Assembly: GCA_021498095.1 (NCBI GenBank)
Contig: JAIZWK010000001.1
Location: forward strand, 3,450,001-3,482,000
DNA from: Candidatus Harpocratesius repetitus
GTDB lineage: Archaea; Asgardarchaeota; Lokiarchaeia; Sigyniarchaeales; Promethearchaeaceae
Direction: 5' to 3'
DNA: 32,000 nucleotides
The position numbers and the translations under genes were made by a program. The stretch's first letter is position 1. Every line of letters starts with the position of its first letter. The notes under the pieces were generated by a model. The model ran no database searches and was not told where the DNA came from. It saw only the letters and a list, made by a program, of their open reading frames with translations. Positions 9,620-25,962 of the stretch are shown piece by piece.

Positions 9620-11017
9620 ATGACTTTTATGGCTCTTTACGACGCTGATCTACATCTTCATTCCCCTTATTCTATTGCAGTCTCCAAGAATATTTCATTG
9701 GAAACGTTAAATAAAACGGCTGAAATAAAAGGAATTGATATTTTAGGAACGGGAGATATCACGCAACCCAATTGGCGCAACTACATGCGCGAGAACTTGA
9801 AAAAATCAGATGGATCATGGAAATTTAAGAAGACTTCATTCATTCTTCAAACAGAATTAGAAGATAATGAATCAATTCATCAATTAATTTTGTTGCCGGA
9901 TTTCTCGTCTGTGGATGCATTGGTTGAAAAGATTAGACCATATGTAAAGAATATTGATGGAAGATGGTCAGGTCGACCGCATGTACACCGAACACCAGAA
10001 GAATTGGTTGAAATTGTTTCAGATGTAAACGGTCTAATTGGTCCTGCTCATGCTTTCACACCATTTAAATCGATTTTTCGACAAGGAAAATTTAATTTAT
10101 TACGAGAAGCTTATGGAACAGCTGTGAAAAAGTTAGCATTTTTAGAATTAGGTTTATCTGCTGACTCATACCTCGCCGATAGAATGGAAGAACTTCAAAA
10201 TATTACATTCCTCAGCAACAGTGATGCGCATTCTGAAGGACTAGATGCAGTAGGCAGAGAATTTAATAGATTTTTCATTGAAGAACCTACATTTAATGAA
10301 ATAGAAAAAGCACTTTTCCGAAAAGGAAATCGTAAAGTAAATTTAAATTTGGGTTTGGATCCTCGCTTAGGAAAATATTATCAGATGTTTTGCTCAAAAT
10401 GTCGTAGAAGAGTTTTAAGATCAATTCAGATTAAAAATCAAAACAAAGAAATGTCAGAGAAGAAAAAAGCAGTTTCAAATTATTTGAATATTTTTGGATT
10501 TCCTTTGAAATCTTGGGATGATACATTCTTATATTACGAATTTCCAACTAAACAAAGAGAACAACAATTTCTAAAGTTAGTAGCAAAGAAAAAAATTGAA
10601 TGTGAGGCTTGTCGAAAAACAATTTGCAATGACCCAAAACACAAGAAAAATAGTAAGATCCCACATCTTCAACTGGGAGTTAGTGAGCGTATCAATGATC
10701 TCGCAACTTGGGACAAACCTCATCACCCCAAACATCGACCTCCCTATCTTCGGATGATTCCCTTAATTGAAATACTTGCGAAAATTTTCAAAATTAAAAC
10801 ACTTAAATCAAAAACCCTCCTTCAACATTATCAAAATCTCATTTCTGAATACGGAAATGAATTTTATATAATTATTGATTTAGATTTAGAAAGTGCTAAA
10901 AAAAAGTTCAAAGCAAGCCCTTATGAGAAAGTATTCAGAACGATTCAAGCATTTAGAAATGATGAAATCACCATCACTCCAGGGGGAGGGGGGAAATTCG
11001 GGGAAATTAGTTTATAA
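9620..11017 (+). CDS. endoQ: Endonuclease Q family (PHP-domain, TIGR00375-like) DNA repair endonuclease
   Basis: DLHLHSPYS, GTGD, PAHAFTP, ELGLSAD, SNSDAHS, GREFN, LGKYY-CxxC...CxxC, LGVSERI, RPPY..IPL, PGGGGKFG. Confidence 0.85.
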   Translation: MTFMALYDADLHLHSPYSIAVSKNISLETLNKTAEIKGIDILGTGDITQPNWRNYMRENLKKSDGSWKFKKTSFILQTELEDNESIHQLILLPDFSSVDALVEKIRPYVKNIDGRWSGRPHVHRTPEELVEIVSDVNGLIGPAHAFTPFKSIFRQGKFNLLREAYGTAVKKLAFLELGLSADSYLADRMEELQNITFLSNSDAHSEGLDAVGREFNRFFIEEPTFNEIEKALFRKGNRKVNLNLGLDPRLGKYYQMFCSKCRRRVLRSIQIKNQNKEMSEKKKAVSNYLNIFGFPLKSWDDTFLYYEFPTKQREQQFLKLVAKKKIECEACRKTICNDPKHKKNSKIPHLQLGVSERINDLATWDKPHHPKHRPPYLRMIPLIEILAKIFKIKTLKSKTLLQHYQNLISEYGNEFYIIIDLDLESAKKKFKASPYEKVFRTIQAFRNDEITITPGGGGKFGEISL

Positions 11018-11064: not shown

Positions 11065-12270
11065 TTAAATAGGAATAAGTAAATCCTTAGCATTATTTCC
11101 AACGACTATTTGAAGAAAAACATGAGTAGATGGAAAGGAGCCTATAACCAATTCAAGATTTCCACGAATTCGAACTTTTTCTAATAGCCTAACATTTTCT
11201 GTAAAACGCCCTCTAAGGGTAAAAACTTGCTGAATGTTTTCTAACTTAATCCCAAAGTTATCGAGAATTTGCTGCTTTTTAGAATTAATATTAGGCGGAT
11301 GAATAATTCGTACATTTCCTAATTCAACTTTACATGGTGTAATCCACCAGTACTCATCCCCTATTACTTGAGCCTGCACTTCAATTATTCCAAATGTTTG
11401 GATTTTCTGGGATTCAAATTGATTAATTTTTGCATACGATTCACGATTTTCAAATTCAAAGTAGCGAATAAAAAATTCTCGATTTCTAAAAAAACCTTGA
11501 TGTAATTTCCGTAATTCAATATGAACAAATGAATGAAAAGGAATATGATGCGCAGGAACCCTTAGATCATAAAGCTTCTCCAATTCTTTTATGGAATATC
11601 CTCTTAATCTTGAATTATACTTATCCTTCTCTTCTCGAAAAAGATTTGAAAGATAATTTCTCACCCGCAGGCCGGCATCGAAACCATAGATAATTAGATC
11701 AATATCTGAATCTTCATCATTCATCCCAATTAGACAAGATCCTGTAACTCCAAAATGATTCTGATTCAATCCGGTATTTTCACATAATTCATGGATAAAA
11801 TCGATTGCATCTTTAAGAACATCATTTGATTTAGCATTCTTTTTAGAATTAATATTCTTTTCATTTATTAATTGGTTAATTTCTTCAGATGTAAATTCTT
11901 TTGAATTTATTCGGAAATCATTTAATGCCATTGATTCAGGACGGTAATGTTTTCGAATTAAAGAATATGAAACTTGTGGAATCAGAAAATCACGATTCTG
12001 GTGAGAAAGTGGGATGTGTGGATATAATAATTGAAGAATTTCGAATTTTGCGGCTAAAGATTTCAACTTATAAAAAAAATTGGAATTAATTATTCGAAAT
12101 TTAGGATAAAAAAGCTTTTTAATTTTTGTTTTGTCGATATTTTTTATCTTAATTTGAGGAATATAACGGGGAAGTGCAACTACAGCACCTTTAGGATGTT
12201 GAAAACCTTTCACTTCAAAAAAACTTCCATCAATTAACTCAATAAAGTCTCCTTCCAGAAATATGCTCAT
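11065..12270 (-). CDS. Archaeal predicted nucleotidyltransferase (COG1665-like, Pol-beta fold)
   Basis: [19 protein letters not shown] (GS + DxD); N-terminal EGDFIE..F.VKG..HP; C-terminal [16 protein letters not shown]. Confidence 0.75.
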
Positions 12271-12313
12271 TTTTTTCCTTAATTTTATTTGGAATCAAAC
12301 ATTTATCAAAATA

Positions 12314-12862
12314 ATGAAAATGGAGAATCTTATCCGAGAGATGCTTATTGAATTAGGAGAAGATCCAGATAGAGAAGGATTACTGAAAACTCCAGAGCGA
12401 ACAGCGAAAGCTATGAAATTTTTGACCCAAGGATATACACAAGATATTAATGAAGTAATTAATGGTGCTCTTTTTGAAAGTGAATCTGATGAGATGATTA
12501 TTGTAAAAAATATTGAAGTTTATTCAATGTGCGAACACCATATGCTTCCATTTATTGGAAAATGTCATTTAGGATACATCCCAAATGGTAAAATTATTGG
12601 TTTATCAAAAATTGCTCGAATAGTTGATGTATTTGCTCGACGATTACAAATCCAGGAAAGGCTTACTAAGCAAATTGCAGATGCAGTTATGAAATACACA
12701 GGTGCAATGGGAGTAGGTGTTGTAATCGAAGCTCAACACTTGTGCATGATGATGCGAGGTGTTGAAAAACAGAATTCAGTAATGACCACTTCATCAATGA
12801 CAGGAGTTTTTCGAAAAGATCCAAAAACTCGAACAGAATTTCTAAGTTTAATTCAAAAATAA
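12314..12862 (+). CDS. folE: GTP cyclohydrolase I (FolE type)
   Basis: [35 protein letters not shown]...[21 protein letters not shown]; ATG at 12314 (or 12320) preferred. Confidence 0.97.
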
Positions 12863-12935
12863 ATAGAGAATAATTTAGCAACTAAGAAATACTTCACTTG
12901 TCATTCTCATATTTATCTAATTCTTCTTTCTTTTT

Positions 12936-13703
12936 TCATTTCTGATGATAGTTTTTTATCCATTTTAATGAATGATCAATAAATTCAGTTAAATGTTCGC
13001 CTTGAAACTCATGGGTAGCCCCTTTTACTTCGATATACTTCTGCTCAGTTTTATTAGGAAGAAGAGAATATGCTTTACGCGTCCATTTTGGTAACACACC
13101 ATTATCTGCATCTCCTTGTATGATTAAACAAGATTCAGTAAAATTCTGTAACCGTTTCTCAATATCTATTGCCCAAATGGTATCTAAAAAGGATTTTTCA
13201 AGTATTAATGGTTCATTATTAGCAGAAGGAATAGTTATTGGTTTTCGACTGAACATAGCTGCAATTCTCATGAAAAAACCTTTCTTTCCAATGATCTTTC
13301 TCATGTAAAAGGCAGGTGCCCAAAAGACGGTCGTAATTCGTTCAGGAATATTGGCTAACAAAGATGTTAGACCTCCAAAACTTAAACCAATAATGCTTAT
13401 TTTAGTAAAACCTTGACTCTTACTCCATGAAAATACAGATTCGAGATCTTTTACTTGCTGAGTAATTGTTATAGGTATTCTTGGGTTTTTTCCTGAACCT
13501 GAAAAATCAAAAGTAAGTGCAGCAAAACCTATTTCAGTAAATTTTTCTGCCGTGGCTGGAAAACGTCCCCATTCATTCTGATCACCGGTGAAACCATGGC
13601 AAAGTATTACAAGATCAGTTGGAGATGAGTCATCTTCTGGCAAATATAAAATTCCACCTAAAGTCTGCTGATTGGTAGGTAATTGAATTTTTCTTTGTTT
13701 CAT
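12936..13703 (-). CDS. Alpha/beta hydrolase
   Basis: Oxyanion HGFTG, nucleophile GLSFGG, IQGDAD acid, ATHEF histidine. Confidence 0.9.
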   Translation of the reverse strand: MKQRKIQLPTNQQTLGGILYLPEDDSSPTDLVILCHGFTGDQNEWGRFPATAEKFTEIGFAALTFDFSGSGKNPRIPITITQQVKDLESVFSWSKSQGFTKISIIGLSFGGLTSLLANIPERITTVFWAPAFYMRKIIGKKGFFMRIAAMFSRKPITIPSANNEPLILEKSFLDTIWAIDIEKRLQNFTESCLIIQGDADNGVLPKWTRKAYSLLPNKTEQKYIEVKGATHEFQGEHLTEFIDHSLKWIKNYHQK

Positions 13704-13803
13704 AAAATCATTTCCGTTAATTTACAATTGAATTAACTTATATTTGAAAATTATTTTTGTATCTTCGATCTATCAATTAATTCGATAAAAATGCATGAAA
13801 AGA

Positions 13804-15633
13804 CTAATTTTGCTCAAATGAAGTACCGAATTTTAAGGCTAACTCTGCTCGGTAAAGCTCTTTTCCCAAATAAGCCGCATGATCCAATCGACTAACAAGA
13901 TTTTTCTTTAAAATATTTTTATAGAGTGATTCAGCATTATTACCAATAAAAATTCGTGGTTTTTCATTATAATTAGTGTAATGTACAGCAACTATCTGAT
14001 TATTGTCAAGATCGACATATATTTTAAAAAATCCTGAGGGGTCCATCTTTGCATCTGTGATATTGGGTGAAATTGAGAAAATTTCAGCTTTTTGCTTATT
14101 TTTCCCCTCTTGATTTTGAAATAACATGGAAGGAACAGGAGTGTATTCCCTCTTGGATTTGAAAGAAAATGCATTAATTCCCAAATTTATTGGAGGTGCT
14201 TTATTTACTTTCGCTAAAAACATTAAGTTAGAACTTTTTTGAAATTCTGATATAACCAAATGGCATTTTTTGGAATATTCTGTTAAAAGAACGCCTGAAA
14301 TCTGCAGTTCTGTAAACAATGAAGAAAGCAAGGCAGTAATTCCCGGAGAATCTGCATCCATCAATTCGATTACATTACTTGCGCCTGCAAATAATTGGGG
14401 AATTGGAAAATTGTTAAGATGATAAAAACTTGATTTATTCTTTTCAATTTTTAATTGGATTGGATTTGATTTATTCAAATTTGAATTATTTTGTTGTATA
14501 TTATCTTGTTTTGAATGATTTTGATTTGAATCATTAAAATTTATTTGTTCTGAATTTGGATCATCTTGATTTTGAAGATTGTTAATTAAATACCGAAGAA
14601 CCCAATATCGTTGGAGTGAAATAACTAAACCTGGTCTAATTGGCGTGCTTAACAAAGGATCTAAAAGAATTTTCTTAAATCCATAAGAACTAACCTGAAT
14701 ATAAAAGGCTAATAACATTTTCAAATACGAGGATTCTAATGGGGCTAATTGCTTAAAATCAAATGGAAATTCTAAATCCAAATCACTATAATCGAATTTA
14801 TAATCAGAAGGAGAGAATTCTGGCGGAATAAGGCAAACTACAGTAATATCTTTAGGTATATCTTTCAATTGATCAAAATTATTCGGTGTTAAATTTAAAA
14901 CCATAGATGCCCCATATTTTACTGCAGTGCGTATTTCTGAGGCATTTCCACTGTCAATTGAAAAAGGAACGGCATATTTTTTTCTTAATTTGGGAAGAAT
15001 CTCTTGAATTCGCGCACAATGATCCTCATAAGGCACACAACCTAAATCAATTATATCAGCGCCATGTTCAATAAGTAATTCAATTTTTTTAAAGAGAAGG
15101 TCGTTTGAAAGAAGAGGAAAATCAACAATTTCACCTAAAACAACTGGTGGAAGATGGGGACTAAAAATAACATCAGGAAATTCAGATGAGAGTGAAAAGG
15201 AAGGACTAAGGGAGCCACTTTTTAGTGATTTGAGAACTTTTTTTATATGTTTATTAAAATTCTCTTGACCTAAGCTATAAGGTGTGAATTCTGCGAGTTT
15301 TAATGATTTTAGATCATTAATTGATGTCTGTTTTAATAATGCGGTAATTTGGGAAGCAAATTTTGGCCCTTTTATAATTGGAATGTGAATTGCTTCTTCT
15401 ATCTTATTTGGATTCCATGGTATCAGCCCTGAAATCATTATCAGATCATATTTTTCTAAAGATATTTTCTGCAAACAGTTCAGAACAGATTGCGGTGAAC
15501 TAAGCGAAATGACAGATACAGGACATTGATGGACAAAAAGTTGAAATCGATCATCCACGAATTGTTCATGTAAAGACTCTAATTGTGGAGCAGCTTCTTT
15601 TCCTGTTATTAAAAGAATCTTAGTAATACTCAT
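13804..15633 (-). CDS. Dihydropteroate synthase-related protein (archaeal DHPS-like family with C-terminal DUF4346-like domain)
   Basis: ILLITGKEA N-terminus, IIKGPK, VLGEIVD, GADIIDLG, PFSIDS, LLDP, NVIELMDADSPG, LLTEYS, MDPSGFFKI, LVSRLDHAAYLGKELYRAELAL. Confidence 0.85.
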   Translation of the reverse strand: MSITKILLITGKEAAPQLESLHEQFVDDRFQLFVHQCPVSVISLSSPQSVLNCLQKISLEKYDLIMISGLIPWNPNKIEEAIHIPIIKGPKFASQITALLKQTSINDLKSLKLAEFTPYSLGQENFNKHIKKVLKSLKSGSLSPSFSLSSEFPDVIFSPHLPPVVLGEIVDFPLLSNDLLFKKIELLIEHGADIIDLGCVPYEDHCARIQEILPKLRKKYAVPFSIDSGNASEIRTAVKYGASMVLNLTPNNFDQLKDIPKDITVVCLIPPEFSPSDYKFDYSDLDLEFPFDFKQLAPLESSYLKMLLAFYIQVSSYGFKKILLDPLLSTPIRPGLVISLQRYWVLRYLINNLQNQDDPNSEQINFNDSNQNHSKQDNIQQNNSNLNKSNPIQLKIEKNKSSFYHLNNFPIPQLFAGASNVIELMDADSPGITALLSSLFTELQISGVLLTEYSKKCHLVISEFQKSSNLMFLAKVNKAPPINLGINAFSFKSKREYTPVPSMLFQNQEGKNKQKAEIFSISPNITDAKMDPSGFFKIYVDLDNNQIVAVHYTNYNEKPRIFIGNNAESLYKNILKKNLVSRLDHAAYLGKELYRAELALKFGTSFEQN

Positions 15634-15642
15634 ATTAAAACC

Positions 15643-16221
15643 TTAATTTAATGGAAAATTTTCTTGAACTGCCTTACATAAATTTCGAGGGTTCTCAAAT
15701 AAAGAAACTGTGGGAAATTTCCTTAAAGAACGCGCATTTTGGCTGTTAAAATTGTCAACGGTAATTTGTATTGTTTTTCCATTTGGAGTAATGGTTGAGA
15801 TAATGCCAGGTATTAAATCACAAGGGACGGCATAAATTGGTCCATTTCCTTTAATCATTTGTGAAAAGATATTAGTTATTAATGAATCTGCTATTCCAAC
15901 ATTCATTTTCCCAACTGAATTAGCAGAAAGCGGACTTATTATTAATAAATCATAGGTATGAAGATTAAACTTAGCACAAATAGGAAATCCTGGTGGTTGA
16001 TCTTGTTCACGATATATATGTTTAATCTGCTGTGGATGCGAAGACTGCAAGTTTTTTAAACGCTCATATAATCTATAAGTGTTTAATACTGTTTCAGCAG
16101 CTGAAGATAGAAAAAGATCAACTCTCAATCCCTTTTCAACTAATTCTGCAAAACAGTCTATACTCTCTTTTAAAAGATGTCCAGAACCAGTAATACCCCA
16201 TGCTATTTTTTCATGTCCCAT
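15643..16221 (-). CDS. Archaeoflavoprotein (HFCD family; AfpA/dihydromethanopterin reductase-like)
   Basis: IAWGITGSGHLL, FLSSAA, YDLLIISPLSANSVGKMNVGIADSLITN, KG..PIYAVPCD; 9 bp upstream of the DHPS-like gene. Confidence 0.8.
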   Translation of the reverse strand: MGHEKIAWGITGSGHLLKESIDCFAELVEKGLRVDLFLSSAAETVLNTYRLYERLKNLQSSHPQQIKHIYREQDQPPGFPICAKFNLHTYDLLIISPLSANSVGKMNVGIADSLITNIFSQMIKGNGPIYAVPCDLIPGIISTITPNGKTIQITVDNFNSQNARSLRKFPTVSLFENPRNLCKAVQENFPLN

Positions 16222-16611
16222 GATGAAATTTCACTGTACATTGATTTAAATATTTAGCTTTTTTTGGATTTGTGTTAATTAAAAAGAGATAAAGTGATAA
16301 AAAAGAAATAAGATTTGCTAAAAAGACATGAAAGATTAATTAAAATATTCACGTGCTTTTTGTTGCTGCAGAATAAATTTTGTAAATTCACTGCAAGAAT
16401 ATTTTTCATAATAATAGCTTTCCACTTATTGATACTTACTGAAATAATAATGTCCATTTTTATATGTAAAAAATGCAGAATTTTTTTGAATCGCCATTAT
16501 ACTTTTCTTCAAATTTTGCGTTTAAAAGAATTTCCTTGACAGCAATCAAAAGGATTTTATTTTACCTTCGTCAAACAAATCTTTTTATTACGGCCGTCAA
16601 AGAAAAAATAT

Positions 16612-17400
16612 ATGACAGAAATTAAGTCAAATGCATTTGAAACGGGGCGAACTTATTCAGAACTTCAAAAAATCATTCTTAAAATTCTTCTTGAAGGACC
16701 TTATCGGCAAAATGAACTGCAAACTGAACTTCAGAAACGTATGAATCGAAAGATTACACCTCAAAATCTTTCTTATCATCTAAATGTGTTAGGAAAAAAG
16801 CAATTAATCGAAAAAAAAATCATAGTGCAAATTGGAAATGCGCGCATTGATGAAATAAGAATAAATACAGGACATTTGTAAGAAATAAGGAGAATTTTAG
16901 GAATTGATATTCCAAATTATACGCTAATTACTGGTTTTGGAAAAATGACGTTAGGTCACCGAATTCCTGATATTGTTTTCAATGCGCTCAGACGCTTGAA
17001 TTTTCCTATAACACGGATTGTATGCTTTACTACGCAAGATTCAAAAGTAATTCGTGATGCAAAAGAAAAGGAAGAAAAATTAATAAAAGTAGAAAAATAT
17101 CATTATCAATACAGATACAGGGAAGATTTCTGCAATTTAGATTCAAAATTATATCAACATGATTTAGATCATATATTACGGGAAGAATTAAAAAGCGCCA
17201 ACCTTATTCTGGATTTAACACCTATGTCAAAGCTTTTTTCCTTTTAAATGTTGGAACTCGCTAATCGATATCATTTACCCTGTTTTTTCTTAGGACAGGG
17301 AAAAAATGGCAAAGAATTGTTGATTTGGATGAGTGAAGTGAAGTTAGAAGGAACTATGAACACTGTGACAGTTCATTTAAATTCTTCAAAGGGAAAATAG
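16612..17400 (+). pseudogene. Winged-HTH + CARF/Rossmann-like transcriptional regulator interrupted by two in-frame TAA codons
   Basis: ORFs 16612-16881 and 16945-17247 are in the same frame, which continues to TAG at 17398-17400 (262 aa). TAA at 16879 (GHL*EIRR) and 17245 (LFSF*MLEL). ArsR-like NLSYHLNVL; CARF-like LITGFG and LILDLTPMSK...LPCFF. Confidence 0.7.
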
Positions 17401-18572
17401 ATATCGTCGAGAATTGTTCCTTTTGTTTCAAATAATCCCATATGATCTAGGAGGTCTTGAACTGGCCCTCCCAGAATTCCTTCTGCAATAAGACAAGCAC
17501 CTTGAGCCGCAGTTTTCGCTTGTTTTGAGTAAGATTTCAAGTAATCAAATTCAAATAAGGGGCTTTCACCTAATTTAAATAATTGAAGTCGTTTTTGAAG
17601 TTTCATTTTCAACCATTGAAGATCGACCCCTAAGCCAGTCAGTAGAACTAGAATTCGATAATTTGAAGAAGATCGATAAAAAGAAGAGATTTTTGTAAAG
17701 TGAAATGAGTCTGCAAGTTGGAGAAGTGCCTTCGCTATTTGTTCGATCAGTATTAATTTGATGGGAGAATTTTCTGCTAATTGCTTAAACATTTTATATC
17801 CAGGCAAATTAGCTTCTCTACTGCCATAATTAATCTTATCATCCTCATTCTTATTGTTTAAATATCCAAGAGCAAAAGATGATAACATTGAGTCAATTCC
17901 CCCCTGATAAATCGATTTTTTAGATTTGATATGATCTTTACCTAAGAATACCAGTTCAGAGTCCATTCTTCCCAAAGATTTAAATCCAATTAGATTGCTT
18001 CCACCAATACCATCAATAATTTTGCCATGTTCTACAGCAACAGCTGCAGAAAATCCACGTCCTATTTCTAGCATTATATAATTAATTTCTTGAAATTTAA
18101 GATCTTTTTCATTCGATATTTGGTGAATTCCCTGAACCACATTGCATACTTTATCTGCTGTTCCCATATCTATTATATTTATTTTTCGATAGCGCGGAAC
18201 GGTTGAAAAATGCTTCACTCCAGGGATAATATAAATTGGTATTGAAAGTTCAATAGACACTTCTTTCAAAAGATAAAGAACTTGGCTTAAACCCATTATT
18301 GCTTGTTCCTTAGATGAATGTAGAGTAATTAAAGAAATTTCATGTTGTGAAATATTGGAAATATCCCTAAGTGGCAGACCAAATCCACTAGGAGCGGCAA
18401 TTGCATCCAATGGAAGCTGTTCTTTAATTAAATTCACCACTAATTCAGGATTTGCTTTTATTGAAGAAGAAGAAAGAGTAAAATCGAAAAATACGACTCG
18501 TGAATCACCCTCAATCTCACATCCATAAAAATCCCATGAAACACTCCCTGGATCAACGCCCAACACACGCAT
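17373..18572 (-). CDS. DUF1464 family protein (ASKHA/butyrate-kinase-like fold)
   Basis: MRVLGVDPGSVSWD, PSGFGLPL, IPGVKH..TVP.YRKIN.IDMGTADK, EIGRGFSAAVAVEHGKIIDGIGG; ATG at 18572 preferred. Confidence 0.85.
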   Translation of the reverse strand: MRVLGVDPGSVSWDFYGCEIEGDSRVVFFDFTLSSSSIKANPELVVNLIKEQLPLDAIAAPSGFGLPLRDISNISQHEISLITLHSSKEQAIMGLSQVLYLLKEVSIELSIPIYIIPGVKHFSTVPRYRKINIIDMGTADKVCNVVQGIHQISNEKDLKFQEINYIMLEIGRGFSAAVAVEHGKIIDGIGGSNLIGFKSLGRMDSELVFLGKDHIKSKKSIYQGGIDSMLSSFALGYLNNKNEDDKINYGSREANLPGYKMFKQLAENSPIKLILIEQIAKALLQLADSFHFTKISSFYRSSSNYRILVLLTGLGVDLQWLKMKLQKRLQLFKLGESPLFEFDYLKSYSKQAKTAAQGACLIAEGILGGPVQDLLDHMGLFETKGTILDDIYFPFEEFK

Positions 18573-18653
18573 GAAAATCAAAATAACTAGGGTTTGGAGA
18601 TTTTTCAACTTTCCCGAAAATTCTTTTAGTTCAACAACATATATTAAATAAAC

Positions 18654-19367
18654 ATGAATGAACTCTCTTCATACAGAATACATGACGATTTACTCACTTT
18701 CAAGCCATTTATTAATTATGAATCAATTGTTTGTGTATATTTTCCCAATACAGAAAAAAAAATTAATGCCGCATGCATTGGTGTTCATTTTACCCCAACA
18801 AACGAAGTTTATATTCATGCATATGAAGATACACATACTAAAGAATTGTTAACTGTCGGAACTCGCTTTTCTATCAATTTTTCAGAAAATTTTTATGAAT
18901 ACGTTGTAGCTGCTTTAAGACGGAAAGATCATGATGAACCCATAGATGAACTACCAAGATCAGCCTTTTTAATAAGTGATTCTATACCTATTCTAAAAAG
19001 TGCATGGGCAGCGGTTGAATGTGAAGTATTGGCCCTGCCTTCATCTTTACTCGAAAAACCAGTATGCAAACGGAGAGAAATTCCAAATATTCGTGCTCGA
19101 ATTATTAAAAAAGAGGTTTTTCGACTACCTGTATTATTCAATAATAGATCTATGAATCTATCAATTGAAGCACTAATATTAGTTACCAGAATTCCTATTT
19201 ATGAAAAATATTCAAAAGAATTTAATGATACATTAAAAATATATAATATTATCAAACGAAAGATCATCAGTTGGCGGGACATGGAAAGATTTCATCAATC
19301 TTATGAGTTGATGGATAATTATTTGATTGAAAATGGTGTAAAACCACAAGAATTGTCTTTTTTTTAA
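18654..19367 (+). CDS. DUF447 family protein (split-barrel-like)
   Basis: YESIV, NAACIGV, THT.ELL..F.INF, LKSAWAAVECEV, NRS...IEALILVTRI. Confidence 0.75.
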   Translation: MNELSSYRIHDDLLTFKPFINYESIVCVYFPNTEKKINAACIGVHFTPTNEVYIHAYEDTHTKELLTVGTRFSINFSENFYEYVVAALRRKDHDEPIDELPRSAFLISDSIPILKSAWAAVECEVLALPSSLLEKPVCKRREIPNIRARIIKKEVFRLPVLFNNRSMNLSIEALILVTRIPIYEKYSKEFNDTLKIYNIIKRKIISWRDMERFHQSYELMDNYLIENGVKPQELSFF

Positions 19368-19431
19368 TTATTCGCTTGAAAAAAAAGAAGAATGAAGTGC
19401 TTATAATAAAAAGTAATTTAAAAAAAGATTT

Positions 19432-20496
19432 TCAAACAAGATCTAGCATATATTCGTCATATTCATCTCTATCACGCTTATTTGTATATATTTTAGCAGA
19501 AATTTTAGAATTGAGTTGAAAAACACTTGTATTAAATGTTATATGTGTTCCTTTTTTTGGAATGGGTGTTGGAGTGATGAATATCTGCTCATCCCATAAT
19601 ATGTTTAATGCACCATCAAGTGATTTCTCGGTATTTGGAAGCAGTACTTTGCTGCGATCCCAGCGTCTTTTAGTTGTTGAAACAGAACTGTCGGGAACGC
19701 GAATATCTGCAAATTTAGGAGCAATGTAATGATTAGGATGAAAAAAACGATCTTCAATTTCTGTTACCGCAAAATCATTACCTGTAATCTCAATATTTAC
19801 TGCTCGATGTTCCTTAAGACTGACAATGTTATAACTTACCCCCCCAGTTCGAGGAGAAAAACCATGAGCCCGTTCTACAGCCTGCTCAATTGATTTTGAT
19901 TCGAGCATCCACCTACCTAAAATAGTGCGAGGAATTCCCACAGCACCTACTGGATCGGGAACATAATTGCAGGTAATAATAATTCCATTGGAATTCATCC
20001 CATGCGAATAACCGGGAATGCAGCCAGGGTATGTATGGCAAAATATAGTCAAATCTTCACTTAGTTTCATCTGCAAATAATAAGAATTTTCACACATCAC
20101 CTTGTTATGATCTTCGTTATGTGCCAATAATATTTCACTTTGAATGCCCTTTGGAGTAATTTTTTTTGTATTAAAAATTACTGTGGAACAATTTTCATGC
20201 TCAAACAGGTGAAATAAATTAATTAGCAAAATTTTTTGATAATCAATACCTGAACCATCTGAAATTCCACGAATCTCCTCTAAATACTGCGGAAAATGAT
20301 TCTTGATTAATTCTTCTGCTGTTTTTACTTTTTGAGGGTTTCTATGATCAAACTTTTCTAAATTTTGTATTCGAATACTTTTTTGAAGCACATTATTTAT
20401 TTGATTTCGAAAATTCTGTCCCATTTTAAATCCAATTTCATAATTAGAACCTTCTACTGTAAGAAATGGAAAAAACTTGAAAGATTGCTCAGTCAT
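19432..20496 (-). CDS. Peptidase C45 family Ntn hydrolase / acyltransferase
   Basis: YLEEIRGISDGSG, autoprocessing ENCST, LAHNED, GMNSNGI, HPNHY; ATG at 20496 preferred. Confidence 0.85.
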   Translation of the reverse strand: MTEQSFKFFPFLTVEGSNYEIGFKMGQNFRNQINNVLQKSIRIQNLEKFDHRNPQKVKTAEELIKNHFPQYLEEIRGISDGSGIDYQKILLINLFHLFEHENCSTVIFNTKKITPKGIQSEILLAHNEDHNKVMCENSYYLQMKLSEDLTIFCHTYPGCIPGYSHGMNSNGIIITCNYVPDPVGAVGIPRTILGRWMLESKSIEQAVERAHGFSPRTGGVSYNIVSLKEHRAVNIEITGNDFAVTEIEDRFFHPNHYIAPKFADIRVPDSSVSTTKRRWDRSKVLLPNTEKSLDGALNILWDEQIFITPTPIPKKGTHITFNTSVFQLNSKISAKIYTNKRDRDEYDEYMLDLV

Positions 20497-20591
20497 TAAA
20501 TTAAATAACATAACTCTGAATTTGAAAGTTAACATTTAACATAATTTTCTCTCTAATAAATATAAATAGACAAAATAGTGAAGAGATACTA

Positions 20592-20993
20592 TCATAATTG
20601 CGTTATACTTTTAATAAACATCATAGGATAATTTAAATCTGACATCCACTGGACTCGCCCAACTGCTTTCCAATTTCTATAAACAATTTCTACTTCTGCT
20701 TGAAGATTTTTACCCGAAACGTATGTATAATCATACTCGTTGGATTTAGTATAATGATGGCTCATACCTTCTTTTAAATCAGTAATTTCTACTTTAACTG
20801 ATTTTACAAAAGGTTGACATTCAATTGAAGCTTTAATACCTTCAGCAATGCTTTTCTTTGTTTCTTCATCATTTTTTATAGGTGCACCGAAAACCAAATG
20901 AAAAAGTGCAGCTAATTTAATTCCCAACTCAAAGATTGCAATTTCTCTGTCTGTTACATCAGGAGAATGATAATCACGAGCTAATTCTTCCAT
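20592..20993 (-). CDS. mptD: Archaeal dihydroneopterin aldolase (MptD)
   Basis: TDREIAIFELGIKLAALFHL.FG.P, SIECQPFVKSV.V, Y...SG.NL, LNYPMMFI. Confidence 0.85.
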   Translation of the reverse strand: MEELARDYHSPDVTDREIAIFELGIKLAALFHLVFGAPIKNDEETKKSIAEGIKASIECQPFVKSVKVEITDLKEGMSHHYTKSNEYDYTYVSGKNLQAEVEIVYRNWKAVGRVQWMSDLNYPMMFIKSITQL

Positions 20994-21001
20994 AGTTAGT
21001 A

Positions 21002-22051
21002 TTATTTATAATGAGATATAAAAGCCCCGCGATTATCTGGTAATGTTTCAAAGATTTCAAATTTAGGAGCATTCTGAAAATCTTTTAGAAAAGATTGAAT
21101 GTGCTTCTTAAAACTCTCTAATTCAAATGATTTCTCTACAATTGTATAAAGAACCGGGCCAAAAGATGAAAGTCCTATTGGTATTTGATAAGAATTATAA
21201 ATATCTGTAAGTAAAGAAGGTATTATTGTATGTTGAAGAGATAATTCAATTTTCTTAAAACCCATATTATTAATCGCCCAAATTCCATCAGCTAATACTG
21301 TCAAATTTTGCTGTAAAATTCCAGGAATTACTTGAAATAAAAGTCGATGAGCAATTTTCTCAACATCAGATTGCAGTATTGGAGTATAAACAGAAAAGAT
21401 TGAAACTTCTTTTTTATTTGCGATTTCTTGAGATACTTTAGGAAGAAGTAAAATTATCTTCCACTTTTCTGGAAAATCAAGGTGGAAAAAAGGTAGAGCG
21501 GGAAATGTATTTGTGGCTGAAGAAGGTAAAAAATTCTGTTTTTCGGCTTGTGGTCCAAAAGTATGCCCCAAATCAAGGTGAAATCCTCCTTTTTCGAAAA
21601 CTTGATAACCAATTCCAGAAGTGCCACCGCGTTGAACTAATTTTGTCAATTTTGAAACTGAAAAAGAAAGCTTGTAAATTTCGCATATTCCACGCGCAAG
21701 AGAAAGAAGGATTTGAGTTTTAGAGCCAAAACCTTTATGACTAGGGATAACTTGATTGATTCTCACAAAAAATGAGCGCGGAGATAAGGAATATTCCTTC
21801 TCTAATTGCTTTAAGACAAAGAATAACAAATCTTTATGATCATCATTACCTAAAAAATTCACTTTACTGCCTTTAAATTCAATTAGTTTAAATTCGTTTA
21901 AAGCTGACTCTGGAAATTTATCCCAAAACTCAATTTCTAAGTGTGGGTTTTGAATTCCAAAACCAAATCCTCCATCAATCCGACCCAAACTTCCATTTAG
22001 GTCAATTAAGGACATATGAATACGAGCGGGAGCATGAATCAAAAAATGCAT
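21002..22051 (-). CDS. mptG: Beta-ribofuranosylaminobenzene 5'-phosphate (RFAP) synthase, GHMP family
   Basis: PARIHMSLIDLNG.LGRIDGGFG, HKGFGSKTQ, RGGTSGIG..F..GGF..D.GH, GFKKIE, GLSSFGP; ATG at 22051 preferred. Confidence 0.9.
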   Translation of the reverse strand: MHFLIHAPARIHMSLIDLNGSLGRIDGGFGFGIQNPHLEIEFWDKFPESALNEFKLIEFKGSKVNFLGNDDHKDLLFFVLKQLEKEYSLSPRSFFVRINQVIPSHKGFGSKTQILLSLARGICEIYKLSFSVSKLTKLVQRGGTSGIGYQVFEKGGFHLDLGHTFGPQAEKQNFLPSSATNTFPALPFFHLDFPEKWKIILLLPKVSQEIANKKEVSIFSVYTPILQSDVEKIAHRLLFQVIPGILQQNLTVLADGIWAINNMGFKKIELSLQHTIIPSLLTDIYNSYQIPIGLSSFGPVLYTIVEKSFELESFKKHIQSFLKDFQNAPKFEIFETLPDNRGAFISHYK

Positions 22052-22141
22052 TACACTGATTGTAATTAATGCAAAGTTTGATAAATTCATTTGCTTTTTT
22101 TTCAATAATTAGCTAAATTTATATGAAATAGTTGGCAAAAC

Positions 22142-23644
22142 ATGACCAATTTAGAGGGTATTGCGCGGAATTTACTTAGACAACAAAAATCACGTGAAGA
22201 TATAATCGATCATCTTATTTCAGAATATAAAATCTTTAAAAACACTTCTTCAGAATATTTACGTCAGTTTGCTGAAGCAATTGTTGATGAAGTCGAAATA
22301 TCTGAAAAAATTATCAAAGATGCAGAAAACAGAAAGAAAATCTCTCAACCAGAAATATTTGATGAAATAATCATTCCAATTCAAACTGAGGTTAGCATGG
22401 GCGAAGGAGGCGTAGGGTGTCGTGGAGAAGGTGATAATATTATTCATCACTATTTGTCAAAAATTAGTCGAACGGCAAACACCCCCTATATTTCCCCACT
22501 TTCTTTAGACGATGCAGGAGCAGTAAAAGTAAAAATTAATTTAACCAATTTTGAGGATTTAGATGATTCAGAAGGTTCTGATTTTTCAGAAATTTCAATA
22601 AATAAAGATATAGAAAAGAGAAAAAAAGCAAAGAAATTGCCTGAGCAATCTTCAAATAATACTTTAATTGTTGTTTCAAAAATGGAGGGAATGCATAGCC
22701 GTCTCAGTGATTTCCCGTTTTTAGCAGGATTTCATGTTACCCGCGCTATGCTTCGTGATCTTTATGTAAAAGGAGCCCAGCCGATTTCGATTATGGTTGA
22801 TGTTCATCTTGCTGATGATGGAGATATAGGAAAGCTTCTAGATTTTCAAGCAGGAATCGCCACTGTTGCTGAACTTGTAAATGTACCTATAACTGCGGGT
22901 TCAACTTTAAGAATTGGGGGAGATATGGTAATAGGAGATCGTCTTACAGGTGGAATCGCAGGTATTGGGATAATGAAATGCTCCTATTTTAGAAAAAATA
23001 TTCAAGCAGGAGACACTATGATAATGACTATGGGTTCAGGTGGTGGAACTGTATGTACTACAGCTTTATACCACGGACATCCTGAAATTGTCAAGGAAAC
23101 ATTAAATGTATCCTTCATTGAAGCAGTAAAGACGATCTATCAGAATCCTAAAATATGTAATCGTGTCCATGCCATGATAGATATAACTAATGGAGGCTTA
23201 CGAAACGATTTGTTAGAAATTCAAGCCGTAACTTCTCTGGGATTTGATGTAAATCTGGAAAATGTACGCCAAATGGTCAATCCTAAAATATTAACCTTAC
23301 TTGCAGATGCTTCTGTGGATTATTTAGGTGTTTCTTTAGATAGCTTGTTAATTTTCTGCGAAGATTCAGTTAAAATGACAATAATACAGAAACTTCATGA
23401 AAAAGGGATAGAAGCGAAAAAAATAGGCAGAGTCCAAGTCAATGATAAGATTATTTTTTATCAAGGGAATCAACAAGAGATAATTAAACCAAATTTTCGG
23501 GAGTCTGCATATACATCAGTAAAAAAAATAATAGAAAAGAACGAAATTCAGCCAAAAAATTATACTAATTTAGTTGAAAAGGCATATCGGCGTGCTCAAG
23601 AAAAAAAGAAGGCAGTAATTAATCATATACACAATAATATCTAA
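22142..23644 (+). CDS. AIR synthase-related protein (PurM/HypE/ThiL/SelD superfamily, archaeal subfamily)
   Basis: NLEGIAR, MGEGGVGCRGEGD, DDAG, GMHSRLSDFPFLAGFHVTRA.LRD, DVHLADDGD, AGSTLRIGGD, GSGGGT, DITNGG. Confidence 0.85.
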   Translation: MTNLEGIARNLLRQQKSREDIIDHLISEYKIFKNTSSEYLRQFAEAIVDEVEISEKIIKDAENRKKISQPEIFDEIIIPIQTEVSMGEGGVGCRGEGDNIIHHYLSKISRTANTPYISPLSLDDAGAVKVKINLTNFEDLDDSEGSDFSEISINKDIEKRKKAKKLPEQSSNNTLIVVSKMEGMHSRLSDFPFLAGFHVTRAMLRDLYVKGAQPISIMVDVHLADDGDIGKLLDFQAGIATVAELVNVPITAGSTLRIGGDMVIGDRLTGGIAGIGIMKCSYFRKNIQAGDTMIMTMGSGGGTVCTTALYHGHPEIVKETLNVSFIEAVKTIYQNPKICNRVHAMIDITNGGLRNDLLEIQAVTSLGFDVNLENVRQMVNPKILTLLADASVDYLGVSLDSLLIFCEDSVKMTIIQKLHEKGIEAKKIGRVQVNDKIIFYQGNQQEIIKPNFRESAYTSVKKIIEKNEIQPKNYTNLVEKAYRRAQEKKKAVINHIHNNI

Positions 23645-23647
23645 AAT

Positions 23648-23696
23648 AAATCAAGAACAATTAAAAAAAATCAAGAACAATTAAGAATGATCAAGA
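23648..23696. repeat. 20-bp-period direct repeat (AAATCAAGAACAATTAA x2 + partial) between convergent genes; possible terminator region
   Basis: TCAAGAACAATTAA at 23651 and 23671, TCAAGA again at 23691; T-rich on the minus strand. Confidence 0.6.
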
Positions 23697-24227
23697 TTTT
23701 ATATGAGTTTTTAGATTTTCTAATTTTTTTATCATGATAAGAAGATAATTGGCAATTTGATCCATTAAAGATTTGTAATCCTTATAACTATTATATAATG
23801 CCGGATCGGGCAGCTCAACCACTTTATTTTCTGCAGCTTCGGATAATAGAATGCACTTTTCCCTATATTTTGAAGGTAGTAGAACATCTCGATGATCTTT
23901 TGTCATAACAATCAACGCTGTTGCATTTCGCAAATCTTCTTTATTTTTTCTCATATGTCGAGGGATATGTTCTTTAATGCGTTCATCTGAAACATGATAA
24001 TCTAATAAAGCTTTTGCAGTAAATGGATGAATAATTACATCTTTTTGCAAAATAAATCCTCCACTTTGGATTTTAAAAGTAGAAACATCTAGAATAGGGC
24101 CTTCTTTAATCATTTTTTCAAATAATATTGCAGCAAATGGAGAACGGCATATATTACCAGCACAAAGAAAAATTAAATGAATTTTAGATAACTCCTGCAT
24201 CTTCTTCCAAAATGTCTCATAATTCAT
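23691..24227 (-). CDS. Low-molecular-weight protein-tyrosine phosphatase family
   Basis: P-loop FLCAGNICRSPFA (CX5R-S), ALIVMT..H, general acid PDP. Confidence 0.9.
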   Translation of the reverse strand: MNYETFWKKMQELSKIHLIFLCAGNICRSPFAAILFEKMIKEGPILDVSTFKIQSGGFILQKDVIIHPFTAKALLDYHVSDERIKEHIPRHMRKNKEDLRNATALIVMTKDHRDVLLPSKYREKCILLSEAAENKVVELPDPALYNSYKDYKSLMDQIANYLLIMIKKLENLKTHIKS

Positions 24228-24429: not shown

Positions 24430-25149
24430 TTACTCGGTAGAAGCAGGAATTCGGCTTATTTTTGATTCAAATTCTTCTGGAGTAATATCAATATCTTCAT
24501 CTTTCGCAATTTTACCACGTTCTCGCATAATTTGACGGGCTAATAACCATAACATTTTAGAAAGACTTTTTCGACCACGATTATTACTTGGAATGGCTAA
24601 ATCTATGTTATAAAGATAATCATCAGTATCAATAAATGAAACAACTGGAATTCGGGCAAGTTGGGCTTCAGCTAATGCTTGTTTGTCTGCGTGTGGATCA
24701 ATCATTAATAAAACATCGGCTTCTTTGAATTGATCAATCAAAGGATTCGTTAATGTTCCTGGAATGAAGCGATCTGCTAATGCTTTCGCACCTGTAACTT
24801 TACAAAAAGCCCGTACTGGAGCACGTCCATACCTACGAACAGAGCACACCATTATTTTTTCTGGATCAAAAGAAGCGAGAAATTTAGCAGCTACACGTAC
24901 TCGTTCATCTGTAGCGAGTAAATCAATTACATATAAGCCGTAAGAAGTTGTCCTGTAAATCCACTTTTCACTATGAATTGTTTTTAATTTAGTTCCAATA
25001 TGAACTCCAGAACTCAAATAGTCATTTCGGGGGATAAGTAAGTTATCTTCCTTTTCTTCTTGTAAAACTACTGTTTCATCATCGAGGACGATTTCTTCTA
25101 GTTCATCTTCGCCTTCATCGACTTTATCTTTCTTTTTTTTATCAACCAT
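24430..25149 (-). CDS. rps2: 30S ribosomal protein S2 (uS2), archaeal type
   Basis: YLSSGVHIGTK, RFIPGTLTNP, DP..D.QAL.EA, DTD, IPSNNRGRKSL...WLLAR. Confidence 0.97.
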   Translation of the reverse strand: MVDKKKKDKVDEGEDELEEIVLDDETVVLQEEKEDNLLIPRNDYLSSGVHIGTKLKTIHSEKWIYRTTSYGLYVIDLLATDERVRVAAKFLASFDPEKIMVCSVRRYGRAPVRAFCKVTGAKALADRFIPGTLTNPLIDQFKEADVLLMIDPHADKQALAEAQLARIPVVSFIDTDDYLYNIDLAIPSNNRGRKSLSKMLWLLARQIMRERGKIAKDEDIDITPEEFESKISRIPASTE

Positions 25150-25431
25150 GAATTTTCACCTATATATCGCATCATTGAAGGATTTCATCAATCAAGATTT
25201 ATCCTTCTCACGAACGCTCAGAAACTTTTTTTCCAATGATAGAATTCACTATCATCTGCTGAACGATTTAAGTAAAAAAGAGTTTTATTTAATATGAATT
25301 TTTTCGTTTTGGTGAAAAAAATAAAGATATCTTAATTTATTTGATGTAAATCAGAAATGAGAAAAGAGTGATAAAGTGATAAAGTTTACAAACAGAAAAT
25401 GTATAAATTATTTAGCGGGTAGGTTATTTCT

Positions 25432-25962
25432 ATGCCAATTAACAATATCAAAATTCGGTATACCATAGCGATCCTATGGAGTTTAGTGCTGGCAATTTTT
25501 GGAGTGTTCATATATAGTAATTTTGTATATCGTGGCATGCGCTTACAAAATGATATTTTCCCAAATTTCACAGCTGGTTCATTTAATAAATTTACTACCG
25601 GCTTATATCTTCTAGTTGGTTCTGGTTTTTCTGCCGATCTTTTTAATCTATTTTCTTTGCAAAACTTACAAACTTATGGATTTTTTGGAATTTTATTTGG
25701 TGAAACTTTATGGCCCGCAATTTTAACTTGGGGATCCATAGGAATAATAATCGGAATGTTCATAAAGGGGATAAAATATAGTGTTATAACTGCTCTTATA
25801 TTTTATTCAGGAATATGTGTTATTTATTTTGTAATTGCCCTTCTCGCTGGTGTAAATCTTGCTGGAGGAAATTTCTTAGCAACATTGGGAGAACTTTTAA
25901 CTGGTTTTATCTTTATATTCCTTTCAAGTATATTGGCAGGCTTCATTAATGGTCCTCACTGA
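25432..25962 (+). CDS. Hypothetical integral membrane protein (~4 TM helices)
   Basis: Several long hydrophobic Gly-rich segments; 14-bp overlap with the next gene. Confidence 0.65.
   Translation: MPINNIKIRYTIAILWSLVLAIFGVFIYSNFVYRGMRLQNDIFPNFTAGSFNKFTTGLYLLVGSGFSADLFNLFSLQNLQTYGFFGILFGETLWPAILTWGSIGIIIGMFIKGIKYSVITALIFYSGICVIYFVIALLAGVNLAGGNFLATLGELLTGFIFIFLSSILAGFINGPH

Follow-up and report, generated by a model that had tools for sequence, protein, structure and literature searches.

The closest described systems to the gene cluster reported here are the tetrahydromethanopterin (H4MPT) pathway of methanogens, with MptA, MptB, MptD, MptE, MptG, MptH, DmrX, and MptN of M. jannaschii, the H4MPT islands of methylotrophic bacteria, and the gene set of Sulfolobus, whose folate analogue (modified folate, sulfopterin) contains an aminophenyl-pentitol arm. 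Bacteria make a dephospho-H4MPT without the phosphate-hydroxyglutarate tail. Several steps in the synthesis of methanopterin-type cofactors have no enzyme assigned to them, and a 2011 inventory counted about seven unknown proteins in this process (PMC3087415). We analyzed a 32,000-nucleotide stretch of DNA (hereafter the window) from the Asgard archaeon Candidatus Harpocratesius repetitus, in which positions 11065 to 23644 hold a methanopterin-type biosynthetic cluster that offers four candidates for such steps: DUF447, DUF1464, a PurM-type enzyme, and a three-domain nucleotidyltransferase (NTase). We consider it likely that the cluster makes a pterin carrier of one-carbon (C1) units derived from ribofuranosyl-aminobenzene phosphate (RFAP), and that DUF447, DUF1464, and the PurM-type protein catalyze steps of this pathway; the step-by-step enzyme assignments are much less certain.

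The question is relevant to the physiology of the cultured organisms most closely related to eukaryotes. For the cultured Promethearchaeum syntrophicum MK-D1, Filee et al. (PMC9931769) and a preprint reported that folate and H4MPT biosynthesis appear incomplete and suggested folate cross-feeding, and Imachi et al. (PMC7015854) drew its C1 reactions with tetrahydrofolate. In contrast to the published incompleteness, MK-D1 carries the whole cluster, with the same flanks as in the window. If an RFAP-derived pterin serves bacterial-type folate enzymes in these archaea, their C1 metabolism and vitamin dependence, and those of Asgard archaea at large, would have to be read differently. New in this work are a quantitative test of co-occurrence, the retention of the cluster in the MK-D1 family without any H4MPT-dependent enzyme, the replacement of MptA by FolE, the resemblance to the Sulfolobus gene set, and a division of the genes into conserved cluster members and passengers.

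The window corresponds to G000:C1:3450001-3482000 (window position 1 is C1:3450001), where G000 is the genome of H. repetitus itself, closed in one contig of 4.36 Mb with a completeness estimate of 93.6%. Asgard genomes are labeled Gnnn, families f1, f2, and so on, and fetched loci Lnnn; G089 and G094 are the other two sampled genomes of the genus. Genes were called from a listing of open reading frames (ORFs) together with Pfam and NCBIfam scans. For the phyletic survey, each family was searched in the same set of 151 Asgard genomes, with script-checked contingency counts, and 14 control genomes, including Sulfolobus acidocaldarius, Haloferax, and two methanogens, were searched alongside; the sampling therefore covers Asgard genomes, with other archaeal phyla represented by the controls. 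Gene neighborhoods were compared by tblastn of all window proteins against 21 mptG loci drawn from ten or more Asgard families; 20 of these were 20-kb stretches around the gene, each from a different genome, and the last was one further contig.

The gene content that an earlier sequence-only reading had listed for this region was recovered almost exactly by the ORF listing and family scans (Table 1), as were its four divergent gene pairs, NTase/FolE, AfpA/winged helix-turn-helix (wHTH), DUF1464/DUF447, and MptG/AIRS-like (PurM-type); the gaps between the genes of the DUF1464/DUF447 and MptG/AIRS-like pairs measure 36-45 bp. The cluster proteins are 89-92% identical to those of Candidatus Harpocratesius sp., and each gene occurs once in G000, except that the C45, hydrolase, and phosphatase genes have distant paralogues there.

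Our comparison of neighborhoods showed that these genes travel together well beyond the genus. DUF1464 lies beside mptG in 17 of the 21 loci, including the distant families f8, f9, f12, f13, and f19, and is the most constant neighbor of this gene. The AfpA/DmrX and DHPS-like genes follow mptG in f1, f2, f8, f9, and f19, DUF447 and MptD flank it in f1 and f2, where MptD adjoins it, and in f1, f2, and f9 the AIRS-like gene and mptG are transcribed divergently. The closed genome G038 has a co-directional operon of mptG, DUF1464, DmrX (with Fer4), the DHPS-like gene, MptA, and two NTase genes; the order in f13 is DUF447, mptG, DUF1464, and f8 and f19 carry the AIRS-like gene together with DUF447 in a small additional module at a separate genomic site. 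In MK-D1 (CP042905.2, 1347169-1368536) the order is FolE, an inserted ABC transporter, alpha/beta hydrolase, DHPS-like, flavoprotein, DUF1464, DUF447, MptD, MptG, AIRS-like, low-molecular-weight (LMW) phosphatase, uS2, and GH127. Because the same genes stand together in the 21 loci and in MK-D1, the clustering exceeds what chance would give, and the synteny of the uS2-GH127 flank with MK-D1 indicates that the region has been inherited vertically in the family and is not a mobile island. We regard the cluster as probably a biosynthetic supercluster inherited within the Loki lineage of Asgard archaea.

The phyletic counts point in the same direction. RFAP synthase (MptG) was found in 65 of the 151 genomes. 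DUF447 was present in every one of these and in 2 genomes without mptG, while DUF1464 co-occurred with mptG in 61 (mptG only, 4; DUF1464 only, 2) and, at the family level, was found in 10 of 12 mptG families and in 0 of 15 others. The PurM-type gene accompanied mptG in 41 genomes, was missing from 24 with mptG, and never stood alone, being found in none of the 86 mptG-negative genomes. The mptG genomes without it belong mainly to f12 and f13, whose MptG is only ~25% identical to that of the window. Family f7 gave strong mptG, DUF1464, and DUF447 matches in one of 26 genomes, G146, where DUF447 adjoins mptG and a DUF1464 fragment comes next; another f7 genome, G093, gave only a faint DUF447 match (23.5 bits). 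The sequence-only reading had listed orphan enzymes and a regulator beside the pterin genes and suggested that the cluster may encode missing late steps. Linkage to mptG and co-occurrence with it held for DUF1464, DUF447, and the PurM-type gene, which adjoin mptG in most loci, and gave no support for the C45 hydrolase, the alpha/beta hydrolase, and the regulator.

Table 1. Coordinates (window positions) of the cluster and its flanks, with the basis of each assignment.
Feature	Position	Strand	Basis
Endonuclease Q (EndoQ) homologue	9620-11017	+	E 3e-87 against 5zb8 and 7k30, structures of P. furiosus EndoQ
Three-domain Pol-beta-type NTase, 401 aa	11065-12270	-	NTP_transf_2 20.6 bits, cut-off 21
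FolE, GTP cyclohydrolase I	12263-12862	+	TIGR00063 257.9 bits, equivalog cut-off 181.6
Alpha/beta hydrolase	12936-13703	-	Family scan
Dihydropteroate synthase (DHPS)-like, Orf19/TIGR00284 family (DUF6513 + Pterin_bind + DUF4346)	13804-15633	-	TIGR00284 218 bits, cut-off 256
AfpA/DmrB-like FMN flavoprotein, no Fe-S domain	15643-16221	-	TIGR02700 129 bits and TIGR02699 116 bits, both below cut-off
wHTH ORF, 89 aa	16612-16881	+	ORF listing and family scan
wHTH ORF plus following 100-aa ORF	16612-17247	+	Genome-specific insert
DUF1464 (PF07318), ASKHA-type ATPase/kinase candidate	17373-18608	-	246.9 bits, cut-off 23.5
DUF447 (PF04289/PF20766), Orf20 family, flavin-reductase-like split barrel	18654-19367	+	N domain over, C domain just under cut-off
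C45-family autoproteolytic hydrolase or acyltransferase (C45 proenzyme)	19432-20535	-	NF040521 164 bits
MptD, archaeal dihydroneopterin aldolase	20592-20993	-	PF04038 93.6 bits
MptG, beta-RFAP synthase family	21002-22105	-	TIGR00144 241.8 bits, cut-off 113.5
PurM-superfamily protein (AIR-synthase-like; AIRS + AIRS_C), 500 aa	22142-23644	+	Pfam domains
LMW phosphatase (LMWPc)	23691-24227	-	Lies between PurM-type gene and uS2
uS2, 176-aa ORF, GH127 beta-L-arabinofuranosidase flank	24430-28063		Synteny with MK-D1

The core enzymes of the cluster show how it compares with the methanogen pathway, with which it shares MptD, MptG, a DHPS-type protein, an AfpA/DmrX-family flavoprotein, and, elsewhere in the genome (C1:4353687-4354157), MptE. 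MptG contains the GHMP N domain, and the MptD match exceeds the PF04038 cut-off of 25 and covers profile positions 1-107 of 108. The DHPS-like protein has all three domains of its family, an architecture also found in G038 and in the methylotrophy plasmid of Azospirillum. Two differences from the methanogens concern the pterin end of the pathway. First, the window encodes FolE, which scored above the equivalog threshold, in place of MptA. MptA/FolE2 (PF02649) was not found anywhere in the closed genome, and the observation of the sequence-only reading that mptA, mptB, and mptE are missing from the window was correct. FolE occupies the slot beside the NTase that MptA holds in G038 (there between the DHPS-like gene and the NTase); it was detected in 16 of the 151 genomes and lies within ~10 kb of mptG in f2. 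With FolE in place of MptA, no MptB step is needed. Second, the flavoprotein lacks the Fe-S domain and falls outside DmrX proper (TIGR02700 cut-off 251, with profile positions 1-142 of 234 matched and no Fer4) and also below the TIGR02699 cut-off of 192, while the G038 orthologue in the same operon slot is a DmrX form with Fer4. This AfpA/DmrB-like flavoprotein is a probable dihydropterin reductase. MptA and a complete DmrX are retained together in the corresponding operon of other Asgard lineages.

The methylotroph islands (orf19-orf20-afpA, mptG, and the CitG-like orf7) share a different part of the cluster. On the Azospirillum methylotrophy plasmid a DUF6513/DHPS-like (Orf19-type) gene is followed by DUF447 (Orf20-type), in an island that also holds DHNA, mptG, mch, fhc, a CitG-like gene, RimK, and fae. 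The order orf19-orf20-afpA-orf21-orf22 has been named as an H4MPT island (PMC3615186), which the Azospirillum arrangement matches, and the bacterial Orf21, Orf22, and Orf9 are the methylofuran enzymes MfnE, MfnB, and MfnF (PMC8141765); these three have no counterpart in the window cluster. A possible equation of orf21 and orf22 with the ASKHA- and AIR-synthase-like genes was dropped, as the same work identifies their products as MfnE and MfnB. A tblastn search of 72,556 plasmids, methylotrophy islands included, with DUF1464, the PurM-type protein, and the NTase returned no match, which is weak evidence but fits the tail-less dephospho-H4MPT of bacteria.

DUF1464 gave a full-length Pfam match and retains the ASKHA phosphate and adenosine motifs (GIDPGT, DMGTADK, and DGIGGT are conserved in 43 representatives), with no conserved cysteines. 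Among the 14 controls it matched only Sulfolobus acidocaldarius. A distant homologue was seen on a contig of 61% GC together with Fae and an MtdB-like gene, and two further contigs with distant homologues were too short for context. A resemblance of DUF1464 to a hydantoinase-family protein of Azospirillum was rejected, as the hhalign profile comparison gave a probability of 0.6% and so showed no homology.

DUF447 carries both domains of its family, the N domain with 31.4 bits (cut-off 24) and the C domain with 20.9 bits (cut-off 24.8), which we counted as a two-domain match, and weakly resembles the MTH_863 structure 2ptf. Sequence searches of the PDB with the NTase, DUF1464, and DUF447 yielded nothing else of use.

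The PurM-type protein consists of two parts. Its C-terminal ~300 residues (AIRS + AIRS_C) have the PurM fold shared by HypE, ThiL, SelD, and PurM, and Foldseek comparison of the structure model, which has a predicted local distance difference test (pLDDT) score of 83, returned HypE (1e-19), ThiL (9e-16), and SelD (9e-16). The ~170-residue N-terminal part, unique to the window protein among these, is helical and conserved, with an invariant G-x-G-C-R-G-x-G-D...H motif. Homologues in MK-D1 and L. ossiferum are annotated as "AIR synthase-related" or "thiamine-monophosphate kinase"; identity with ThiL was rejected on a score far under the cut-off (TIGR01379, 50.2 vs. 184 bits), the extra N-terminal domain, and the genomic context, and the latter database name is probably wrong. 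Scores against the HypE (32 vs. 252) and SelD (32 vs. 125) equivalog models were also low. PurM-family enzymes activate an oxygen atom through ATP-dependent phosphorylation. The strict confinement of the PurM-type gene to mptG-positive genomes and the promoter region it shares divergently with mptG suggest that the enzyme acts on what MptG produces. From White's work, methanogens reportedly turn the hydroxybenzene ribotide into an aniline with ATP and aspartate, and this phenol-to-aniline conversion would be a chemically fitting candidate for the PurM-type step.

The G-S...D-x-D motifs of the NTase (G177, S178, D189, and D191) are invariant in 41 homologues, which places it in the Pol-beta superfamily, and its AlphaFold model (pLDDT 90) comprises an N-terminal beta domain, a Pol-beta NTase core, and a C-terminal oligonucleotide/oligosaccharide-binding (OB) fold. 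By VIA-align, residues 145-273 resemble Pol X and terminal uridylyltransferases (Z 6.5-6.6) and residues 293-401 the OB folds of single-stranded DNA-binding protein (SSB), editosome proteins, and asparaginyl-tRNA synthetase (Z ~8); a Foldseek search of the PDB with the model returned nothing below 1e-3. The family consists of orthogroups a and b, which form tandem pairs in Asgard H4MPT operons, the window copy being nearer to b. A second paralogue of 428 aa, nearer to orthogroup a, is encoded at C1:209996-211282 (L038:7997-9283) in an uninformative context that includes DUF167 and a DHH phosphoesterase.

Linkage of the NTase to H4MPT genes was seen in several independent contexts, with operon membership in loci L018-L023, L036, and L028; its distribution, on the other hand, tracks Mch and not mptG. 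The first context is the co-directional mptG...MptA operon of f8, f9, and f19, and the second an mptG-less block in f15 with Fwd, a CofE-like gene, Ftr, two NTase genes, an energy-coupling factor (ECF) S component, PfkB, Mer, Mtd, Fwd, Mch, and RimK. The third is an Ignisphaera contig with MtrH, NTase, PfkB, and an ECF transporter, and in the fourth, another Asgard contig, the NTase lies 5 kb from MptA. Mch and the NTase occurred together in 86 genomes (Mch only, 14; NTase only, 6), so that 86 of the 92 NTase-positive genomes have Mch, compared with 58 genomes with both NTase and mptG (mptG only, 7; NTase only, 34).

A different explanation is that synteny alone has kept some of the orphans, or all of them, in place as bystanders, the NTase being a nucleic-acid enzyme that works with EndoQ, and the C45 hydrolase, alpha/beta hydrolase, LMW phosphatase, and wHTH protein being unrelated to the pathway. 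A Pol-beta core joined to an OB fold like those of ssDNA- and RNA-binding proteins fits this explanation, as does the location of the EndoQ homologue, which ends 48 bp from the 3' end of the NTase gene in the window and is separated from it by 0-2.5 kb in f1, f2, and another Asgard contig (L029). The sporadic C45 gene with its occurrence in mptG-less families, the restriction of the wHTH gene to G000, and that of the alpha/beta hydrolase and phosphatase to the MK-D1 family agree with it as well. Yet EndoQ is missing where the NTase is operonic with mptG...MptA (f8, f9, and f19) and where it lies among Ftr, Mer, Mtd, Mch, or MtrH genes (f15, f26, and Ignisphaera), and the near-perfect co-occurrence of DUF1464, DUF447, and the PurM-type gene with mptG argues against bystander status for these three. 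Taken over the whole set of orphans, we hold the bystander explanation to be rather unlikely.

A role for the NTase in the pathway could follow the CitG/CitX (MdcB/MdcG) system. CitG attaches a 5-triphospho-alpha-ribosyl group from ATP, and CitX/MdcG then makes a phosphodiester to a hydroxyl. In the Asgard H4MPT clusters a CitG-family gene and Pol-beta-type NTases co-localize; in f8, f15, f19, and f26, the distance from CitG-family genes to the NTase pairs or to Mch is 2-7 kb. By analogy, such chemistry would yield the ribose-phosphate-hydroxyacid tail of methanopterin, a comparison that here concerns co-localization only. The window NTase differs in its extra N-terminal and OB domains and has no sequence match to the CitX or MdcG families, and the CitG-like gene of G000 (C1:2250-3155) is unlinked, 3.46 Mb from the NTase.

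Among the enzymes that could use the cofactor, those of the H4MPT-dependent C1 pathway (Mch, Ftr, Mtd, and MtrH) were looked for in the closed G000 genome and none turned up, which sets it apart from the methanogens; Mch was not found in G089 or G094 either. The genome encodes instead FTHFS, FolD, SHMT, two MTHFR genes, and MetH (C1:~3197000-3199000), so a methanopterin-type biosynthetic cluster is paired with an exclusively folate-type set of C1 enzymes. Since the genus and MK-D1 lack H4MPT-specific C1 enzymes and have the full folate-type set, the product is most likely their "folate".

The sister family f2, in which all 25 genomes have Mch in addition to the same cluster, and the presence of Mch in 57 of the 65 mptG-positive Asgard genomes would be expected if the product were canonical tetrahydromethanopterin or sarcinapterin and the cluster a leftover of a recently lost H4MPT Wood-Ljungdahl pathway. 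We regard this as very improbable, as the genes are intact, with 45-90% identity among G000, G089, G094, and MK-D1; such conservation, with Mch, Ftr, Mtd, and MtrH not found, implies continued use. The exchange of MptA for FolE and the absence of the DmrX Fe-S domain further indicate that the cluster has been remodeled.

The Sulfolobus comparison points to another kind of product. By gene presence, S. acidocaldarius and G000 share FolE, RFAP synthase, DUF447, DUF1464, MptE, and CitG, and both lack Mch, MptA, and Ftr; they differ in that Sulfolobus gave no FTHFS, FolD, or MTHFR match, whereas G000 has all three. The product is likely an RFAP-derived "modified folate" from a gene set that resembles that of Sulfolobus, and its side chain may differ from that of methanopterin. 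The sequence-only reading had suggested missing late side-chain steps or a new Asgard pterin variant; both remain proposals, the variant being consistent with the lack of every H4MPT-dependent C1 enzyme in G000.

The folate-type enzymes also invite another explanation, in which the cluster makes ordinary pteroyl-glutamate folate by an archaeal route, the MptG-like and DUF447 proteins being otherwise used, as has been proposed in haloarchaea, and the C1 enzymes work with that folate or with folate acquired from partners. Every C1 enzyme found in G000 is folate-type, a full-length DHPS adjoins a CofE-like gamma-glutamyl ligase elsewhere in the genome, and folate cross-feeding has been proposed for MK-D1 (PMC9931769). 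Moreover, Haloferax, a reported folate user (PMC8305020), matches the RFAP-synthase family (TIGR00144) and DUF447, and also Mch. We nevertheless consider this explanation improbable. MptG, MptD, the Orf19-type protein, DUF447, and the Dmr-like flavoprotein are H4MPT-tied families of methanogens and methylotrophs standing in one cluster, the gene set equals that of Sulfolobus with its aminophenyl-pentitol arm, and no dihydrofolate reductase was found in G000. The DHPS concerned (canonical domain at C1:~3103376-3104107) belongs to a 440-aa protein at C1:~3102000-3104200 with a full-length Pterin_bind domain and a ~170-aa C-terminal extension; with the adjoining CofE-like F420-0:gamma-glutamyl ligase it may form the coupling and glutamylation pair of the pathway.

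For the RFAP-derived carrier, a route can be drawn in which the assignments from characterized families come first. FolE would convert GTP to dihydroneopterin triphosphate, MptD would turn dihydroneopterin into 6-hydroxymethyl-dihydropterin, and MptE, encoded outside the cluster, would pyrophosphorylate the latter; MptG would build the RFAP arm from phosphoribosyl pyrophosphate, a DHPS-type enzyme would couple pterin and arm, and the AfpA/Dmr-like flavoprotein would reduce the dihydro to the tetrahydro form. Conserved linkage and co-occurrence suggest DUF447, DUF1464, and the PurM-type protein as enzymes of the unassigned steps. DUF447 would be the best candidate for the reductive opening of the ribofuranosyl ring to ribitol, and the PurM-type protein could carry out an ATP-dependent O-phosphoryl activation next to MptG, the conversion of the hydroxybenzene ribotide being one option, while the NTase and the CitG-like protein encoded elsewhere might build a phosphodiester tail. 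In its full form, which we put forward tentatively, as possible but short of probable, Lokiarchaea of the MK-D1 family, the cultured P. syntrophicum among them, make their own RFAP-derived "folate" for a complete set of bacterial-type folate enzymes, with DUF1464, DUF447, the PurM-type protein, and the OB-fold NTase as the missing enzymes of arm maturation and tail synthesis, and with the PurM-type protein performing the phenol-to-aniline conversion or a similar O-activation.

Several points weigh against reading the cluster as a dedicated route to an RFAP-derived carrier. MptG scored 272 bits against the NCBIfam equivalog model NF040726, under its cut-off of 328. DUF1464, present in G000, was not found in the two methanogen control genomes, makers of complete H4MPT; it cannot therefore be a universal pathway step and must serve one that methanogens do otherwise or do not need. 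The Haloferax matches mean that RFAP-synthase-family, DUF447, and Mch genes alone are no proof of a methanopterin-like product. The modeled OB fold of the NTase suggests nucleic-acid binding, and this family occurs in 34 mptG-less genomes and adjoins EndoQ in Loki lineages. Asgard relatives are not independent of one another, so that the co-occurrence counts exceed the number of independent events. Finally, the functions given to DUF1464, DUF447, the PurM-type protein, and the NTase are guesses from fold and context. Our literature search found no link of DUF1464, the PurM-type protein, or the NTase to pterin synthesis, nor anything tying DUF1464, COG2441, or COG2144 to pterins; it did not cover Chistoserdova 2005, Kalyuzhnaya 2005, and de Crecy-Lagard 2012, which may mention linkages.

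Apart from the cluster itself, 43 of the 151 Asgard genomes (f3, f7, f15, f16, f21, and f26) are Mch-positive without RFAP synthase, DUF447, or DUF1464. In f15 (L036, G029:C6:121500-141499), Ftr, Mer, Mtd, Mch, and Fwd are accompanied by the NTase pair, the ECF S component, a 477-aa PfkB kinase, a CofE-like ligase, RimK, and a CitG-like gene, a set that could serve to salvage an imported pterin precursor or to remodel its tail. The Ignisphaera contig (L028) also has the NTase-PfkB-ECF trio.

Among the remaining genes of the region, the conservation tests gave no support for cluster membership of the C45 hydrolase, the wHTH gene, or the alpha/beta hydrolase, and the LMW phosphatase is at most a possible member. 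The C45 hydrolase is a lineage-specific passenger: it occurs sporadically in 16 of the 151 genomes, mptG-less families included (both C45 and mptG, 7; mptG only, 58; C45 only, 9), and stands inside the cluster only in G000 and G089, not in MK-D1. The alpha/beta hydrolase holds its position only in the genus and MK-D1 (45% identity); it was seen in loci L007 and L008 and in none of the 19 other mptG loci. The wHTH regulator is found only in G000 and has no counterpart in L007 or L008. In G089, G094, and MK-D1 the flavoprotein gene directly abuts DUF1464, and the 1.15-kb stretch at 16222-17372 (the wHTH gene and 100-aa ORFs) is an insert specific to G000, outside the conserved cluster. The LMW phosphatase occupies the same flank in MK-D1 (55% identity), not in G089. 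The proposed pathway has unassigned dephosphorylation steps, and it is possible that this phosphatase belongs to the pathway.

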